A stretch of 64,000 nt of DNA from a bacterium. Lineage in GTDB: Bacteria; Zixibacteria; MSB-5A5; GN15; FEB-12. The notes beneath the pieces are model-generated. The model searched no databases, was not told the origin of the DNA, and worked only from the letters and a program-made list of their open reading frames with translations. Both the position numbers and the translations under genes were made by a program. Location: NCBI GenBank assembly GCA_043811375.1, contig JBDRNJ010000044.1:4575-68574 (forward strand), given 5' to 3'. This document shows, piece by piece, positions 27,140 to 60,418 of the stretch (positions are counted from its first letter, which is position 1; each line of letters opens with the position of its first letter).

Positions 27140-28960
27140 TCAGGAACATCCACAAGGCTCAGGGCCGCCCGCAAAGAGGTATTGAACCAGGTAGGAAATA
27201 TCCCCGACGTTAACATCACCACCGCAGTCGACATCAGCCGCTTCCAGCGGTGCCGACGGCAGGCCGCCGTTAAACAAATACTCCACCAGGTGAGTTATGT
27301 CACCCACCGTGACATCTGAATCACCATCACAGTCACCACGAGGAAAACAAATGGTAAGAGCGCTGTTATTTACTCGCGGTTCATAAGTAGCATACATACC
27401 GCCAAACTGAGGAGCGTAACTGTCGTAGCCTTCTACCCGAATATGGGTAGTGTCGTCGTATCCCGCCGTACCGGGAAGAGTGAAAAACAGGTTGGCAACG
27501 GCTCCTTCTCCAGCCGGAAGATGCGGCGACGTCCCGGAATAGGAACTGACCAGCTTAATTGTCTGCTTTTTGCCGGCCGGGTCATAGTGAATGTATGTTT
27601 GCACTTCAAAGTAATCCGCTCGACAACCCACGGTTGAGAAGGAATCCAGCGTGACATCCAGATCGCCCGAATACTCTATGGGGATTTTGATGGTGCTGAT
27701 GGGCACGTAGTTATGCACATATACCGGCATCATAACAGCAGTGCTGCGACTACCTTCGGTGGAGACAGGTCTTAGAGAATCGGCCAGCGCTTTGATGAAA
27801 TTGGGCTTTTGCCGGGAGCGAATATCACCACCGGCGTTGATTTCCAGCGTCACCGGAAACAGTCCGGGGTCCGAGAAAGTATGCATCGGCGATTGCTCGT
27901 ATGCCGAGTTACCATCCCCGAAATCCCAGGTCCAGGTGTCTACAACCAGACCCGATATGCCGGTGAAATTGACATCAAACGGCACCCAGCCGATTGTCGT
28001 GTCAGCCTCAAAAGCGACACCGCCCTGGTAGTTGACGTAGCTGGCGGCGTAACCGATCTTCGAGCAACCGTAGGGAATACGCATGTAGCCAGCCTCGCCC
28101 CAGCTGGAGCCCCATGAATTGCGCATAAACCAGACTCCGCTCGGTCCCTGACTGTCGTCCCAGCCAACGATCACCACACCATGATTGACGCTGCCGAACT
28201 CCGAACAACCGTTGAACACACCGCCTCCATAGGCTTGGAAAGAGCTATTGACATAGACCGCCACCGTAATCGGGCCGTAGTCCAGAACGGCCTGCTTGAT
28301 CTGCGCCGTGGAGGGAACACCGGATGAGGAACCGACATAAGCCCAGGACTCTATATGATAAGGATGCTCATAAGGGCAGCCGCAGGAACCGTTTGTAGCC
28401 GTATACGGGAATTCAGCCTCCATAACGGCTCCGGAACTGTCACAGGGGTCAGTCTCAGCCAGGTGGTAGTCATGCGCCCACCAGCCACCACCACAGTCCC
28501 AGCCATGATGGTTGCAGCTAACCAGCCATTGTTCCGAGAGGTCCTCGGTCAAGCGGTCGCGAATCTTGATATTGCATTCAAGAGCTCCCACTGTGGCAAA
28601 CGCCCAGCAACTGCCGCAGCCGCCCTGGTTTCTGACCGGAGGCATATCAGTCGAATCTCGCCAGTCGAAATATGACGGCAAGTCCAGTCTTGGTGCTATG
28701 GGATCAAAGCGCGCCGTTGCCTGCCAGTTCTCCGGCTCCTTCAGACCGCACAGTTCATCCAGGGAATAAGATGTGGCCGGGTTGGCGGAGACCGTGAAGG
28801 TCCAGCCATCCTCCTCGGCCTGTTGTTGCAGAGCGGAGATATCATCGGCGGTTAACTGCGCCATTGACGGGACGGCAATTAACAGCCCGACTATCAGGGT
28901 GATTCCCGGCACGAAGCCGAACAGATTTCGCCCGGAGTTCGTTGATGTCGTTCTTGCCAT
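27140..28960 (-). CDS. secreted papain-like (C1) cysteine peptidase with PKD and dockerin-like C-terminal modules
   Basis: Start trimmed to MARTTSTNSG... (GAGAGGA RBS, signal peptide). Catalytic QGGCGSCWAF, VNHGVVIVGWD and NSWGSSWGEAGY. PKD-like WDFGDGNS. Two dockerin-like repeats DCDGDSDVTVGDITHLVEYLF and DVDCGGDVNVGDISYLVQYLF. Confidence 0.85.
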   Translation of the reverse strand: MARTTSTNSGRNLFGFVPGITLIVGLLIAVPSMAQLTADDISALQQQAEEDGWTFTVSANPATSYSLDELCGLKEPENWQATARFDPIAPRLDLPSYFDWRDSTDMPPVRNQGGCGSCWAFATVGALECNIKIRDRLTEDLSEQWLVSCNHHGWDCGGGWWAHDYHLAETDPCDSSGAVMEAEFPYTATNGSCGCPYEHPYHIESWAYVGSSSGVPSTAQIKQAVLDYGPITVAVYVNSSFQAYGGGVFNGCSEFGSVNHGVVIVGWDDSQGPSGVWFMRNSWGSSWGEAGYMRIPYGCSKIGYAASYVNYQGGVAFEADTTIGWVPFDVNFTGISGLVVDTWTWDFGDGNSAYEQSPMHTFSDPGLFPVTLEINAGGDIRSRQKPNFIKALADSLRPVSTEGSRSTAVMMPVYVHNYVPISTIKIPIEYSGDLDVTLDSFSTVGCRADYFEVQTYIHYDPAGKKQTIKLVSSYSGTSPHLPAGEGAVANLFFTLPGTAGYDDTTHIRVEGYDSYAPQFGGMYATYEPRVNNSALTICFPRGDCDGDSDVTVGDITHLVEYLFNGGLPSAPLEAADVDCGGDVNVGDISYLVQYLFAGGPEPCGCS

Positions 28961-29242
28961 GGCAGATTCCTCTCGATAGTACAAGCGGCAGAAGCAAACG
29001 GCCGGGAAGCATATCATGCTGATGCAATTCCTGCTCCGCGGCCTGCGGGAACACGGATATGTCTTGACGCGGCTTCCGCCTCGTTTATCCTCTCTCTTTT
29101 TGAATATACTCTTTTGCCCGGTTTTGTCCACAAAAAACTTGGCACCGCCGGCGGGAATAACCGGGATGTTATCACAGGCGGGAGTTCTAAGGGAAAGAAT
29201 CGTTTGTTGCCCGACGACCGGTCATCACCGTAGATTCCGACT

Positions 29243-44954: not shown

Positions 44955-45054
44955 TCTGCAAATTGGGGGCAAAATATTTTTGTAATTGCGACAGGGGTAG
45001 TGCGTCTGTAGATTGGAAATGCTTGGTCAGCGGTTGATCAGGAAGTGCTTTACT

Positions 45055-46380
45055 ATGAATAAATCTGCTCTTCACATATCCCGGCTGATGTGGCTTCTGT
45101 TCCTGCTGCCATCTCTGTTGCAAGGTCAGTTGTCCTCCGGAGAGGGTCGCTCGCAATCGGCCGGATTACTGGTCGATTATGCCTCCTTTGCCTCTGACAG
45201 CGCCGGGGATATCCGCCTGGAGTTATATTGCCGCCTTCCCAATAAAGCGCTGCAGTTTCAGAAAACAGAAACCGGCTTCGTGGCTCGTTACGAGTTGGCC
45301 GTCTCAGTGAAGGGTGACCGGGACCGGCAACTGGCGGTCGCTTCAAAAGCGGGGGAGATCCACGCCACCAGTGAACAGCAAGCCATGTCGGCTGTTGACT
45401 TCCGTATCAGACAGTTCAACTTTGATTTGCCGCCCGGCAAATATCGAGCCGTCATCAGACTCACCGACGAAAATTCCTCCCTCACCCGAACCAACGATCT
45501 GGATGTGAAATTGCGTGATTTCGACAGCGAATCACCCGGTCTGTCCGATATAGAACTGGTTCGGTTTTCAGAACCGTCGAACCAGGATACCGGCAGTTTC
45601 ACCAAGGGAGACTTGACGGTAATTCCATCGGTAACCGGCAACTACGGGGGAGATGCCGGTCGACCGCTGCAGTTTTATCTGGAGGTATACCAGGGTCAAG
45701 GCAAATCGGAGCGGGCTCGCATCGAGACCATCCTGCGACCCGGGAAGGGAAGAATGATCTACCGGGATTCGACCACCGTGGAGTTCGACACACCGCTGAT
45801 ACGGCAGATACGGCAGGTGTCCCTGACCGACTTTCCTCCCGGAGACTATGAACTGGTGGTATTGCTGAAGGGACGCCGGGGAAAGAAACTGGCCGTTCGC
45901 TACAAGGATTTTCACATTGCCTGGTCGGTCGAGGCGGCTCTGCGACATGACTTCCAGGCAGCCGTGGATCAACTGAGTTATATCGCCTCCAACGAGGAAA
46001 TTCAGGAACTGAAACGCCCAAAGACTTTCGAGGACCGATTACAGGCCTTCCAGGAGTTCTGGCTCAAACACGATCCCACACCGGAAACGCCGGAAAACGA
46101 ACTGAAATCCTCGTTTTATCACCGGATAACGATAGCCAACCAGCGGTTCACTGCCATGGGTCGCTCCGGTTGGCAGACAGATCGCGGACGTATCTATATT
46201 CAGTACGGTGAGCCTGATCAAATCGAAGACAACCCGATCGCTCTCAGCGGACCCCCTTATCAGTACTGGCATTACTACCGTCACGGTTCCTACCGTAAGT
46301 TTACTTTTGTGGACGAACATGAAGATGGAGACTACCGACTGCTGTTCCCATACGACGGTCTCCATCAACGACCGAATTGA
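45055..46380 (+). CDS. GWxTD domain-containing secreted protein
   Basis: Signal peptide MNKSALHISRLMWLLFLLPSLLQGQ. C-terminal GWQTDRGRIYIQYGEPDQIE motif. Confidence 0.8.
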   Translation: MNKSALHISRLMWLLFLLPSLLQGQLSSGEGRSQSAGLLVDYASFASDSAGDIRLELYCRLPNKALQFQKTETGFVARYELAVSVKGDRDRQLAVASKAGEIHATSEQQAMSAVDFRIRQFNFDLPPGKYRAVIRLTDENSSLTRTNDLDVKLRDFDSESPGLSDIELVRFSEPSNQDTGSFTKGDLTVIPSVTGNYGGDAGRPLQFYLEVYQGQGKSERARIETILRPGKGRMIYRDSTTVEFDTPLIRQIRQVSLTDFPPGDYELVVLLKGRRGKKLAVRYKDFHIAWSVEAALRHDFQAAVDQLSYIASNEEIQELKRPKTFEDRLQAFQEFWLKHDPTPETPENELKSSFYHRITIANQRFTAMGRSGWQTDRGRIYIQYGEPDQIEDNPIALSGPPYQYWHYYRHGSYRKFTFVDEHEDGDYRLLFPYDGLHQRPN

Positions 46381-46396
46381 GATAAAAGGAATTACC

Positions 46397-47845
46397 ATGT
46401 TATTAGTGCGTATAGCTGCCGTGATCCTCATTGGGTGCGGTCTGGCAGGTTCGGTATCGACCGAAACAGCTGCCTCCGACATTGATTCTCAACTGACCAT
46501 CTATGCCGGGGTTATCACCTACCCCAATCCTGACTATGATTCGCTGACTTTAGTTGAGATTTCCTTCTCGCTCAATCGCCATCAGTTGACCTTCTACCGG
46601 CAGGACTCCAGTCAGTCGGACCTGTATGCCTACATCCACGCTCGCTTGGATTTCTATGATACAACCGGAGCAGAGGTTGATTCCGTAAGCACCTTTTTCT
46701 CGGTCAGAGTCGACTCGCGGGAAGAAGCAGCTCAACCGGGTTACCGGGTCTTTAACCGCTTGGTGCGTTTCTTTCGGCCGGGTCGTTACTCAGCGCATCT
46801 GACGGTAACCAACGTGGCCGACGACCGCCGGGGGGAAGTTGCCCTGGATGATTTTGACGTGGAACCGGCCGACACAGAGAGACTCACTTTAGGAGGTGTC
46901 AGTCTGGCCTACAACGTTGATTTCGTCGGTGACGACTACCTGGGAACGAATGCTCGGTTGATCAAGAACGGTTATCTGGTGATTCAGAATCCGGCTGCCT
47001 TATACAGTCCCGAAGAAGATACCGTCGCCTGGGTCTATGGTGAGTTGTACAATCTGGACTACGCCCCGGAGAATCCTTCCAGCTACGAGTTGTCGTATGC
47101 CGTTTTGAATTCCGACTCCAGCCTGTATCTCAACCTGGGCAGCGTGGCGGTAGTGAAACCGGGGCGCACGGCGGTAATTACCGAATCGATAGATATCGTT
47201 GGCTGGCCTGCCGGGCGCTACTACCTGCGTCTGGCCGCTCGTGATCAGACTACCGGTGAGACGGACACAACCCTGGTTTCGTTTATCATACTGCTGTCGC
47301 GGGAAGCTATGCTGGCATCACTCAAACCGCACAGCAGTGACCCTTATGACACCCTCAGCCTCGAAGTTAAGATCCAATTGGCTACACACTTCCTGACGCC
47401 GGAGGAGAAAATAACCCTGAAGCGTCTGACCAACCTCGGCAAAGTTAATTTCCTTAAGCAATTCTGGAGAGAACGTGACGAAACTCCCGCCACTGATATC
47501 AATGAGTACCGTCTCGAATTGATCGAACGCTTCGAATATTGTAATCGGCGTTTCTCCAACTACGAAGACCGATCGGACGGCTGGTCTACCGACCGCGGCC
47601 GCATATATATTGTATATGGCCCCTGGGAAGAGATCGAAGACAAGCAGTCACCACTGGTGGACGACGCCTATCAGATTTGGTACTATCACTCCCTCAGGGA
47701 AGGCAAGTACTTCGTCTTTCAGGACATCACCGGCAGCTTCGACTACCGCCTGGTACACTCTAACGTATATGGCGAGATCTACTCCCGGGGATGGCAGGAC
47801 ATCATAGACCGGGGACTGGAGTCGGATCGGCCGCTGGACTATTGA
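46397..47845 (+). CDS. GWxTD domain-containing secreted protein (paralogue)
   Basis: Start at MLLVRIAAVILIGCGLAGS (AAAGGA RBS). C-terminal GWSTDRGRIYIVYGPWEEIE motif. Confidence 0.8.
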   Translation: MLLVRIAAVILIGCGLAGSVSTETAASDIDSQLTIYAGVITYPNPDYDSLTLVEISFSLNRHQLTFYRQDSSQSDLYAYIHARLDFYDTTGAEVDSVSTFFSVRVDSREEAAQPGYRVFNRLVRFFRPGRYSAHLTVTNVADDRRGEVALDDFDVEPADTERLTLGGVSLAYNVDFVGDDYLGTNARLIKNGYLVIQNPAALYSPEEDTVAWVYGELYNLDYAPENPSSYELSYAVLNSDSSLYLNLGSVAVVKPGRTAVITESIDIVGWPAGRYYLRLAARDQTTGETDTTLVSFIILLSREAMLASLKPHSSDPYDTLSLEVKIQLATHFLTPEEKITLKRLTNLGKVNFLKQFWRERDETPATDINEYRLELIERFEYCNRRFSNYEDRSDGWSTDRGRIYIVYGPWEEIEDKQSPLVDDAYQIWYYHSLREGKYFVFQDITGSFDYRLVHSNVYGEIYSRGWQDIIDRGLESDRPLDY

Positions 47846-47861
47846 GATTGCTGAACCGGAT

Positions 47862-47892
47862 AAAAAAAAGCCGCCCGATGGCGGCCTTTTTA
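47862..47892. terminator. bidirectional rho-independent terminator between convergent genes
   Basis: A8 tract, then GCCGCC-CGAT-GGCGGC, then CTTTTT. Confidence 0.75.
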
Positions 47893-47908: not shown

Positions 47909-48670
47909 CTAAGGAGTACCCTTCTTAACCTGGCCCGGTTTCGGCGGTGGCGTGGATTTGGCTATATGAAGCGACCGCTTGACCGGTATCGTAAACCGGG
48001 ACACTTCCTTGTCTTCGGCTCCCACAACTTCGATCGTAACCGACTTCTCAAACGAGTCGCCGAATGTCGCTTCTAACAATTTCAGACGCCCTTGTCCGCT
48101 CTTGCCCGGTTTGATTGACTTCGGTACCTCGATTTCGAACAAACCCTCGGGCATACCAACCACCGACAATTCCAGCTTCTGATCGGATACGTTGGCTATT
48201 TCAAATTTCTTGTCCTTAATGATCTTTTCGCTGAACTGGGACAAGTCCAGTTTGTATGGTTGGATAACGATCGGATAGGTCGAATCCGGTCGCTCTGTTA
48301 TGTGTGAGATAATCTCGACTCTCTTGTCGGGCGGTCCTTCGTTTGTTTGAATCTGTGGCCGCTTGGTTATGCGCTTTTTATATTTCTTCGTATGAAAGAT
48401 TATCTCCAGCCGGGTGCTGTCACCGACAGCAAGCACGTTGTTTTCCAACGGTGCTTTGGTGCAGCCTCACCCAGGTTTGATGGTCAGAATCCGGAGGGTG
48501 TCGTCGCCTTCCGAGTGCAGCCAGAAAACATGGCTCACAACCGCGTTCTGGGGCACAAACCCGAAATCAAAGGACGAAATCGGGATCGTCAGCCGGGGTG
48601 CAGTGTGCCCTGTGGCCACCAACAGCAGCAGCAGAACCACCGCAATAATCAGAAGCTTCAGACTATTCAT
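47909..48670 (-). CDS. DUF1573 protein with a single in-frame TGA at the CGCT-motif cysteine (candidate selenoprotein, or nonsense pseudogene)
   Basis: ORFs 48467-48670 and 47909-48448 are in the same frame. Read-through gives FDFGFVPQNAVVSHVFWLHSEGDDTLRILTIKPG[TGA]GCTKAPLENNVLAVGDSTRLEIIF, the DUF1573 signature with TGA in place of the first Cys of SCGCT. Confidence 0.6.
48433..48454 (-). promoter_or_regulatory. SECIS-like hairpin candidate downstream of the in-frame UGA
   Basis: mRNA reads UGA, 12 nt, then GCAC(C)GUUG-GAAAA-CAACGUGC. That is 8 bp with one bulged C and a 5-nt loop starting with G. Confidence 0.25.
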
Positions 48671-48733: not shown

Positions 48734-49435
48734 TTATTCTTTTACTAGGTAAAATTTCCTCTCAACCGGAATTGTAAAATGAGTCTTGGGCTTGTCCGAT
48801 ACCAGCAGGGTTATCGAAGTCTTAAACTCAGTATCAGCATACTCCGGTTTCAGTTTAATCCAGCCGGTATCCTGGGTGTTGGCTCGGATACTGTCAGGTA
48901 TGGATATCACGCATTGCTCCGGCAGGTCTGAAATCAAAGTTACCGTCAGATCAAACTTGGAATGATTGGTGAAAACGAAACTGAGACTGTCAATATCCTT
49001 ACGCTCAGATTTAGCAAACAGAAAACGGTAGGGTGTTGATGAAATCGGACGAATCGAATCCGGGTACATAAGGACAACACCCTTCAGGTGCAGTCGCAGA
49101 GGATCAGGACCACCGTTGGTAAAGATTCTGGCGATACGGTTTATGCCGCCCCGGTGCTTCTCGATATCCCAATGGATGCTCACCTTCATGCTGTCACCGG
49201 GTGCGATCTGCTCCCGCTCCAGAGGCATTACGGCACAGGCACAACCGGTCTTGACCTCCTTGATCACCACCGTGTCAGTTCCGATTGACTTAAACCAGAA
49301 ACTGTGTACCAGACGGGCTCGTTGAGGTGTATAGCCAAAGTCATACATCGGCGTTGAACATGCCAACTGAGGTTGCGAACAAACATCGGCGGCGGCCACC
49401 AGAGTTACGGCCAGAATAATCAAAATATTTTTCAT
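48734..49435 (-). CDS. DUF1573 domain-containing secreted protein
   Basis: Signal peptide. YDFGYTPQRARLVHSFWFKSIGTDTVVIKEVKTGCACAV matches the DUF1573 pattern, with CAC in the CxC position. Confidence 0.8.
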   Translation of the reverse strand: MKNILIILAVTLVAAADVCSQPQLACSTPMYDFGYTPQRARLVHSFWFKSIGTDTVVIKEVKTGCACAVMPLEREQIAPGDSMKVSIHWDIEKHRGGINRIARIFTNGGPDPLRLHLKGVVLMYPDSIRPISSTPYRFLFAKSERKDIDSLSFVFTNHSKFDLTVTLISDLPEQCVISIPDSIRANTQDTGWIKLKPEYADTEFKTSITLLVSDKPKTHFTIPVERKFYLVKE

Positions 49436-49668: not shown

Positions 49669-50233
49669 TCAGCCAGGACAGCCGGCCGGTGGTGGGCCGC
49701 CGGTGAAAAGGTAGTCAACCAGCCGAGTAATATCGGCAACATCAATGGAGCTACTGTCGTCAGCATCGCCTTCCTCAGGACAGGGAGGAGGAAATCCACC
49801 CTGGAAGATATAATCGACAAGGTACGTCAGGTCCCCCACGTTGATGGCGCCGTCACTATCGGCATCACCGGTCGTGGGCGAAGGGGGAAAAGATCATGTC
49901 GGCCAGTGTGCTGACATTTATGTCGTGGCCCGTCCCTCCCGGGGAATTGACGGCAACGAATTCCCAGCCGGAAATCAGAGTGCCGCTGGTATCGAAGGTC
50001 ATTTGAAACTCCATGATGTCGGGGCGGTCAAGTATCAGCCACGGGTTGAATCCGGCGATGGAGTCGGAATAGTTCTTCATGTAAATCGGGATTTCAACTC
50101 CCTGTTCTCCCGTCAGGGCGGTGATATCCTCAACAATAACTTCAAGAAGCAGACTGTCCTGGGCGTGAGTCACTGATGCAATCATAATGACTGCCATAAT
50201 TGCCGCCGCAAGTGTCGACAAACGATATTTCAT
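49669..50233 (-). pseudogene. cohesin-like + dockerin-like secreted protein, disrupted by a +1 frameshift
   Basis: ORF 49865-50233 (signal peptide, cohesin-like GEQGVEIPIYMKNYSDSIAGFNPWLILDRPDIMEF) ends ...MIFSPFAHDR*. The next frame reads (F)PPSPTTGDADSDGAINVGDLTYLVDYIF...GDADDSSSIDVADITRLVDYLFTGGPPPAGCPG*, which is two dockerin-like repeats. The shift lies in a T4C5 run (GGGGGAAAA at 49883-49891 on the plus strand). The 565-nt span is 3n+1. Confidence 0.7.
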
Positions 50234-59698: not shown

Positions 59699-60418
59699 TC
59701 AATAGCGAGCCACTGTGACAGGTATTGTCACTCGCGTCGGCCTTGTCTGACCCTCCTTGGTGATCTGCAGCGTCAGACTGGAATGATGACTACCCCTGGC
59801 CAGATCGGACCGCGGGGTTACCTCGAGTTGAACTGCCTTGTCCCTGGCAGCCCGATCCTTGCGAAAATTCACGGTAAACGATGTATCAGCCTGCTCAAGG
59901 ACAGAAACCTGGATTTCCTTGAAGGATGTATTGTTGATAGAAATCTTCTTGGAGTTGTGAGAGGGCAGGAAGAACAGGGCTGCCGGTTTCGGTTGGAGAT
60001 CCCGGTACCACTGACCGATGATAGCTGTATAGGCGTATTCAATTGTGGGTACTGATGGTCGATCAAGGGTTACCGTAAACGTATGCTTGGTCAATCCATA
60101 GAAATCCTTGGTATTGAATGTCAGGCGGAAGAAGGTAGTATCACCCGGCTCGATTTCCCGTTTTAGTATCGTTACCGAGGAACAGTCACAGGATGAAACG
60201 GCATCGATAATCCTCAGACGGCTGTCGGTGCGGTTAACCAGTGGAAACAGATGGTAAACGGTGTAGTCGATACCGATGTGGCCGAATTCATATTCCAACT
60301 CCTCCGGCAGTACCCCAAAATCCCCTACAACTACATTTACCTCTTGTCCCCGGATGTGCCCGGGCGCTATCAAGGTGAATGCCATCAAGAACACCAACCA
60401 TCGACAATTAGCTCTCAT
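59699..60418 (-). CDS. DUF1573 domain-containing secreted protein
   Basis: Signal peptide. EYEFGHIGIDYTVYHLFPLVNRTDSRLRIIDAVSSCDCS matches the DUF1573 pattern (CDC). ATGA overlap with the upstream cysteine-synthase-like gene. Confidence 0.75.
   Translation of the reverse strand: MRANCRWLVFLMAFTLIAPGHIRGQEVNVVVGDFGVLPEELEYEFGHIGIDYTVYHLFPLVNRTDSRLRIIDAVSSCDCSSVTILKREIEPGDTTFFRLTFNTKDFYGLTKHTFTVTLDRPSVPTIEYAYTAIIGQWYRDLQPKPAALFFLPSHNSKKISINNTSFKEIQVSVLEQADTSFTVNFRKDRAARDKAVQLEVTPRSDLARGSHHSSLTLQITKEGQTRPTRVTIPVTVARY

Follow-up and report, generated by a model that had tools for sequence, protein, structure and literature searches.

An in-frame TGA divides a DUF1573 gene

The stretch of DNA analysed here (the window, 64,000 nucleotides of contig JBDRNJ010000044.1 from the Zixibacteria genome assembly GCA_043811375.1) carries on its reverse strand a DUF1573 gene that is broken by a TGA codon where paralogous proteins have a cysteine. 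We found that this TGA is conserved among relatives, that selection acts on the coding sequence on both sides of it, that RNA hairpins specific to the TGA form of the gene follow it, and that the first of these hairpins shows compensatory base changes. Together, these observations support the reading that the TGA is a selenocysteine (Sec) codon, which we consider very probable and which the sequence-only reading of the window had put forward as a candidate UxC site. The gene and its special codon are located as follows.

47909..48670, reverse strand: predicted complete selenoprotein gene of 253 codons including one Sec codon, with an ATG start and a TAG stop; recognised by its single frame, a domain that runs across the TGA, and full-length orthologues.
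48467..48469, reverse strand: predicted Sec-UGA codon, residue 68, at position 1 of a U-G-C motif (48461-48469); paralogues have Cys at the aligned column.

The open reading frames (ORFs) 48467-48670 and 47909-48448 lie in one frame, and the TGA at 48467-48469 is the sole stop between them, as the sequence-only reading had claimed and as translation of the reverse strand bears out. The read-through frame is open from 48670 past the TGA (48469-48467) down to the TAG at 47911-47909, and the "start" listed for the lower ORF is indeed a TTG leucine codon and not a methionine. The resulting product of 253 residues reads ...LRILTIKPG-[TGA]-GCTKAPLENNVLAVGDSTRLEIIF..., and its DUF1573 domain (PF07610) straddles the TGA: with the stop read as Cys, the match covers residues 32-120 (E = 2.8e-20) and reaches 72.6 bits, well above the Pfam gathering threshold of 26.1 bits. 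The DUF1573 signature with TGA in place of its first Cys, which had been recognised from the letters of the sequence, is thus confirmed by a domain match. The two further DUF1573 genes of the window, at 48734-49435 (KTGCACA) and 59699-60418 (SSCDCS), both have Cys at the aligned column, again in agreement with the earlier description. In GenBank, the target gene is cut into two "hypothetical proteins", MFH1373773.1 (ABII79_08265, 67 amino acids) and MFH1373772.1 (ABII79_08260, 175 amino acids).

The TGA is conserved and both of its flanks are under selection

For comparison, DNA of 88 loci was fetched: 38 from species-representative genomes, labelled almost all as Zixibacteria, or as "Ignavibacteriales" in catalogues of metagenome-assembled genomes (MAGs), 45 metagenome loci, and 5 loci around the closest relatives. 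Among the 98 motif-matching family members at these loci, the aligned codon is TGA in 65, TGC in 27 and TGT in 6, and it is never TAA or TAG. Such recurrence of TGA at one codon far exceeds what chance would give. The question whether orthologues have TGA or only Cys codons at this position is thereby answered for TGA, and at least one TGA form is present in 30 of the 33 distinct species-representative assemblies. Large Zixibacteria contigs with TGA forms are CAVQCT010000002.1, JAWLBI010000001.1 and CAWDXE010000007.1; on CP070824.1, the fetched region had a Cys form only. In the protein databases, every one of the closest homologues (62-73% identity) is a call of about 175 amino acids whose start lies just behind the TGA position; homologues near 50% identity are full length and read PGCGCT. 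The split into 67 and 175 amino acids is repeated on independent ENA, Logan and NCBI contigs, and four such contigs have an identical or at least 90%-identical 67-residue ORF with the same end point.

A codon alignment of 60 distinct full-length read-through genes has TGA in this column in all 60. From the 91 pairs with unsaturated synonymous divergence (dS), we obtained a median ratio of nonsynonymous to synonymous divergence (dN/dS) of 0.18 upstream of the TGA (mature part) and of 0.33 downstream, which supplies the coding constraint beyond the TGA that the sequence-only reading had asked for. Between the window gene and its nearest relative, at locus L084, dN/dS is 0.227/1.08 (0.21) upstream and 0.172/2.25 (0.08) downstream. 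Synonymous divergence is often saturated among the TGA-form genes, and ratios well below 1 on both sides of the codon at such divergence are incompatible with a pseudogene.

In a neighbour-joining tree, admittedly a crude one, Sec and Cys forms are intermixed, with about 15 changes by parsimony, and several tandem Sec/Cys pairs are sisters. Judged from these sequences, this appears to be the usual selenoprotein pattern of repeated exchange between Sec and Cys. Tandem copies (Sec and Cys, or two Sec forms) lie within 1-2 kb of one another at loci L011, L012, L015, L017-L021, L024, L025, L031, L041, L044 and L069; some of them are mutual closest relatives, which suggests repeated local duplication accompanied by Sec/Cys exchange.

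Irregular forms of the site were also seen. The database proteins P0002 and P0015 have Trp at the Sec position (PGWGCT), presumably because the gene caller applied genetic code 4 to short contigs. In one orthologue, on a small contig (L088:780-1060, JBHIDM010000444.1), the ...PG-TGA-G... codons are deleted, over a length that is not a multiple of three, and both of the hairpins described below are retained; the gene has either become a pseudogene recently or been misassembled, and the deletion accounts for an odd database protein, P0062, that starts with MWCTK.

Two hairpins accompany the TGA form

Three RNA elements of the coding strand lie directly downstream of the UGA. Alignment columns are counted from the U of the UGA as column 1.

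48433..48454, reverse strand: hairpin 1, candidate selenocysteine insertion sequence (SECIS), GCAC(C)GUUG-GAAAA-CAACGUGC; columns 16-37, starting 12 nt after the UGA, with the loop 21 nt after it.
48416..48430, reverse strand: hairpin 2, GCUGUC-GGU-GACAGC; columns 40-54, exactly 36 nt after the UGA; in the window a U-A pair extends it to 48415-48431.
48458..48465, reverse strand: 5' strand of a putative alternative helix; columns 5-12, which could enclose hairpin 1 by pairing with the loop and 3' arm of hairpin 2 (48416-48424).

Both hairpins had been read from the sequence before, and both fold as described. The first, whose geometry had been likened to that of bacterial SECIS elements, has a folding energy of -8.3 kcal/mol (GCACCGUUGGAAAACAACGUGC; z = -2.7), and only 2 out of 200 shuffled sequences are as stable. 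Its sequence is variable and its pairing is kept. Across 60 distinct sequences, the pair formed by columns 18 and 35 is UA in 30, AU in 10, GC in 10 and GU in 6, and is unpaired in 4; for columns 21 and 32 the counts are UA 23, GC 7, UG 2 and GU 1. The covariation score was matched by none of 500 shuffles, and every slid register scored lower, as was also seen with 34 sequences. The mean minimum free energy (MFE) of this segment is -10.3 kcal/mol in the Sec forms versus -4.6 kcal/mol in the Cys forms (p = 4e-9). The sequence of the loop is not conserved, and a G lies within its first two positions in 51 of 61 Sec forms. RNAalifold on its own missed hairpin 1, as the register of this hairpin differs from sequence to sequence.

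The pairing of hairpin 1 reaches into the protein. Column 18 (window position 48452) falls on the synonymous site of the fifth codon after Sec, an Ala codon, and column 35 (48435) is the second base of a Glu, Val or Ala codon that encodes residue 11 after Sec. The choice of amino acid at residue 11 follows the synonymous base of the Ala codon because both bases pair in hairpin 1, so that RNA pairing co-determines an amino acid of the protein.

The nucleotide-invariant element is the second hairpin and not the first, a point that had escaped the sequence-only reading. Hairpin 2 (UGCUGUCGGUGACAGCA) has an energy of -8.4 kcal/mol (z = -3.8), which none of 200 shuffles equalled, and 99.2% of its alignment cells are paired. 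The exact element, with a GGU or GGC loop, occurs in 61 of 65 TGA forms and in none of 33 Cys forms (Fisher p = 5e-22), and mean MFE values differ accordingly (-8.5 kcal/mol in Sec forms versus -2.5 kcal/mol in Cys forms, p = 3e-13). Third-codon positions within it are 88-100% fixed in Sec forms, as against 45-82% identity in Cys paralogues of the same genomes, which often have Pro or Ala at positions of this peptide where Sec forms have Val. We take hairpin 2 to be real, since the freezing of synonymous sites in columns 40-45 is explicable only by its stem.

A third pairing appears in the free RNA. The MFE structure of the 60 nt after the UGA (-22.6 kcal/mol) pairs columns 5-12 (GCUGCACC, directly behind the UGA) with columns 46-54 (GGUGACAGC). 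This long-range helix and hairpin 2 are mutually exclusive. With 34 sequences, 95% of the cells of the long-range helix are paired; compensatory changes are absent, and the protein fixes most of its bases. We regard a lower stem beside the UGA as plausible.

Comparison with bacterial SECIS elements and a possible mechanism

According to the model of bacterial SECIS elements (bSECIS) in the Fig. 2 legend of a 2026 review (PMC13188914), these structures have an apical loop of 3-9 nt, an upper stem of 4-16 bp, a G in the first two loop positions, 16-37 nt between UGA and loop, and an MFE of at most -7.5 kcal/mol. Hairpin 1 lies within all of these limits, with its G-first loop of 5 nt (GAAAA), 8 bp and one bulge, a spacing of 21 nt and -8.3 kcal/mol. 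Hairpin 2 agrees with the model in its loop (GGU), stem (6-7 bp) and energy (-8.4 kcal/mol). Rfam returned no SECIS or other family in this region, either at gathering thresholds or at E <= 10.

The likeness to the canonical element of the E. coli fdhF type is close in several respects. Both are stem-loops within the coding region directly after the UGA; the distance from the UGA to the start of the element is 11 nt for the fdhF SECIS and 12 nt for hairpin 1. The ribosome would also melt the possible lower stem, in line with the description of canonical elements in the review. Unlike these, the present element has an additional, invariant hairpin with a GGU triloop, which follows 2 nt further on with its loop 42 nt from the UGA and is bound to the TGA as tightly as hairpin 1 is, whereas the loop of hairpin 1 lacks sequence conservation.

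We picture the element as follows. RNA structure within the coding sequence just 3' of the UGA would direct the insertion of Sec, presumably in dependence on SelB, with hairpin 1 placed like the minimal fdhF SECIS. In free mRNA, the 3' arm of hairpin 2 could instead pair with the codons right after the UGA and form a lower stem around hairpin 1. With the UGA in its A site, a ribosome would cover about the next dozen nucleotides and melt this lower stem, which would free the strand and allow hairpin 2 to form. As the contact for SelB, hairpin 1 would be favoured by its position, and hairpin 2 by its sequence invariance and its GGU loop. Treated as a folded insertion, hairpin 1 would shorten the way from the UGA to the GGU loop to 12 + 2 + 6 = 20 nt, a canonical distance.

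A further proposal, which we make tentatively and regard as rather unlikely, is that the two hairpins represent a distinct class of bacterial SECIS. Here, a covarying proximal hairpin would be combined with an invariant distal one, which has the GGU loop and lies 36 nt downstream of the UGA. The 3' arm of the distal hairpin would switch between the lower stem beside the UGA and its own hairpin according to ribosome occupancy of the UGA, the distal hairpin would contact SelB, and the proximal one would serve as a structured spacer that leaves a path of about 20 nt. If true, this would also mark Zixibacteria as a Sec-using lineage that is absent from the searchable selenoprotein literature.

Weighing of alternative explanations

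The sequence-only reading had itself named a simple nonsense mutation from TGC or TGT to TGA as an alternative, which would make the gene one of several disrupted genes, and hence a pseudogene, in this stretch. The neighbouring gene at 49669-50233 (reverse strand) does have a frameshift, at a T4C5 run, and GenBank does show the target as two fragments. Yet the TGA is kept in 65 family members and in 30 species-level genomes; the other loci, at only 45-73% identity, do not go back to one contaminant sequence; both flanks have dN/dS values well under 1; the hairpins downstream are specific to the TGA form; and the GWxTD genes that were supposedly disrupted are two adjacent genes, as in L084. We regard the nonsense mutation as refuted and a pseudogene as very improbable. 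Still less credible is an error of sequencing or assembly that hides a true TGC or TGT. Such errors do occur to mind with a metagenome-assembled genome as the source, but the four independent ENA, Logan and NCBI contigs end their identical or near-identical ORF at the same place, which rules the error out for this site, and the TGA recurs in dozens of more distant assemblies. An equally remote explanation is a genome-wide reassignment of TGA to Trp or Gly (codes 4 and 25), for which the W at the site in P0002 and P0015 could be cited. TGA is, however, the commonest genuine stop in the window, where it ends 21 of 45 well-supported genes, and no other real gene of the window has an internal TGA; a mechanical scan of the window for further in-frame TGAs that separate long open stretches brought up nothing but noise besides the target. 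Trp and Gly would also be ill-suited to a column that otherwise holds Cys.

An explanation without Sec, which we consider improbable, deserves somewhat more weight than these. The hairpins could stimulate near-cognate read-through with insertion of Trp or Cys, or termination could be followed by reinitiation, giving separate products of 67 and about 180 amino acids. Downstream RNA structures can stimulate read-through in other systems, no gene of the Sec machinery was seen in the window or the fetched loci, and hairpin 2 lies outside canonical SECIS spacing. Neither variant accounts well for a stop that is invariably TGA and never TAA or TAG, nor for the repeated interconversion of Sec and Cys in the tree, which is classic for selenoproteins; the family is, moreover, already curated as a selenoprotein family. 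Splitting of the gene would cut one beta-sandwich domain exactly at the Cys of its CxC motif, and this domain could not fold from two separate chains.

Several points weigh against the interpretation of the TGA as a Sec codon. Knowledge of the entire family comes from computational prediction alone, and no member has been verified experimentally (PMC1976440). Neither the 64-kb window nor about 450 kb of related loci yielded selA, selB, selD or a tRNA-Sec, an absence that is expected by chance: ARAGORN, run on the window and on 38 loci, detected no tRNA-Sec; SelA, SelB and SelD were missing from the Pfam matches of another 28 window proteins; and tblastn with E. coli SelA, SelB and SelD had no match in the window or the fetched loci. 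A search of the literature found no paper that ties Zixibacteria or Zixiibacteriota to selenocysteine or selenoproteins. On the RNA side, compensatory change is seen in only two pairs of hairpin 1, the register of this hairpin is shifted in some sequences, and the window's own copy has a bulged C; the loop of hairpin 2, at 42 nt from the UGA, is outside the bSECIS range of 16-37 nt; and one TGA form, L068, is without hairpin 2. This divergent form (L068:1782-1856, 44% identity) has another hairpin, GCGAG-GAAA-CUCGU, at about the same distance, so that hairpin 2 may have been replaced here and not lost.

Relation to the known DUF1573 selenoprotein family

DUF1573 (PF07610, with the motif UGC) is listed as a prokaryotic selenoprotein family in two reviews (PMC9312934, PMC13188914), a fact of which the sequence-only reading was unaware. 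Both reviews cite Zhang and Gladyshev 2007 (PMC1976440), who described the family OS_HP2 from two symbionts of Olavius, delta-1 and delta-4, without Cys homologues known at the time; the listed DUF1573 selenoprotein appears to be this OS_HP2. Sequences of OS_HP2 proper include MDJ0815992.1 and CAB1076174.1. The only NCBIfam match of the read-through protein is NF041425, "OS_HP2 family (seleno)protein", with 66.1 bits over profile positions 2-84 of 98. This score is below the curated cut-off of 100 bits, which indicates a related clade and not a member as NCBI defines the family, and which probably explains the lack of a selenoprotein annotation.

We therefore place the gene as a new member or clade within a selenoprotein family that had already been predicted by computation; neither the family nor the recoding mechanism is new. 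It has in common with OS_HP2 the PF07610 domain and the U-G-C motif with Sec in first place (the motif of OS_HP2 being compared by the description in the reviews only), and both are known from computation alone. In contrast to OS_HP2 from deltaproteobacterial symbionts of Olavius, the present clade occurs in Zixibacteria-type MAGs and is accompanied by many Cys paralogues, often in tandem. Its only new aspect is possibly the bipartite, perhaps switching, SECIS with an invariant hairpin outside the accepted spacing.

The predicted protein product

The read-through gene would encode an exported protein of 253 residues, consisting of a signal peptide and two Ig-like beta-sandwich domains, of which the first is DUF1573, with Sec at residue 68; once the signal peptide is removed, its mass would be about 25 kDa. 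Its N-terminus is covered by a further feature.

48599..48670, reverse strand: predicted N-terminal signal peptide MNSLKLLIIAVVLLLLLVATGHTA, with a hydrophobic core behind a basic n-region.

The sequence of this segment predicts export by a Sec-type signal peptide (the secretion pathway of that name). An AlphaFold model of the Cys homologue P0003 (58% identical; 97 sequences, mean pLDDT 93.8) has an N-terminal helix (residues 3-21) followed by two Ig-like beta-sandwich domains. With this model, Foldseek found Ig domains of the HYDIN/ASH type and a Porphyromonas protein of unknown function, 2qsv; as a clue to function, the fold search of the PDB gave generic ASH/Ig domains only, and a sequence search of the PDB had no match.

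At the U-G-C site, the paralogues have C-G-C, C-A-C or C-S-C. Judged from the U-G-C motif, the protein may carry an extracytoplasmic selenenylsulfide or selenolate centre that is redox-active or binds metal. The tripeptide CGC, a representative of the CxC redox motifs, acts as a mimic of disulfide isomerase. As in these motifs, two chalcogen residues are located one glycine apart, in this case in a predicted exported protein, with the difference that the first position is Sec. DUF1573 proteins are not known to have a catalytic activity, a partner protein or a bound metal.

Significance and genomic neighbourhood

The finding implies that selenocysteine is used by many Zixibacteria-type bacteria of sediment and groundwater. 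A widespread Zixibacterial gene is systematically mis-called in GenBank and large protein collections as "hypothetical proteins" of 67 and 175 amino acids, and the signature TGA-N36-GCTGTCGGYGACAG would recover such mis-called genes. About 60 natural Sec variants, together with tandem Cys paralogues of nearly the same peptide, form a natural experiment in which the constraints on RNA can be separated from those on protein, and the family could serve to test the function of a second hairpin beyond the accepted range of 16-37 nt.

The surroundings of the gene are kept in its closest relatives, where synteny comprises a Peptidase_C1 gene, an FAD oxidase, a DUF1573 gene of the CAC form, the DUF1573 gene of the Sec form, two convergent GWxTD genes and an ABC transporter of the MacB type. 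The Sec-form gene has a terminator in common with the GWxTD gene that converges on it.

47862..47885, reverse strand: intrinsic terminator, GCCGCC-AUCG-GGCGGC followed by U8, read from the sequence and common to the convergent GWxTD gene; the scan lists the stem on the forward strand as well.

We rejected the view that 45013-47845 (forward strand) is a single disrupted gene. It holds two adjacent GWxTD genes, which are separate genes of 444-480 amino acids in L084 and L086, and their ORFs overlap because the ORF list begins each of them at the earliest start available. A secreted cohesin/dockerin-like gene at 49669-50233 (reverse strand) lies in two frames, with the break at the T4C5 run (ttttccccc, about 49880-49888) directly before a dockerin-type Ca-binding repeat, GDADSDGAINVGDLTYLVDYIF. 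This break looks like a homopolymer indel, be it an assembly error or a genuine frameshift, and is not a site of TGA recoding. Genes for Peptidase_C1 recur near the Sec form, as they are found two genes upstream of it in both L084 and L086; in the window, a papain-family Peptidase_C1 protease with PKD and dockerin domains is encoded at 27140-29131 (reverse strand).

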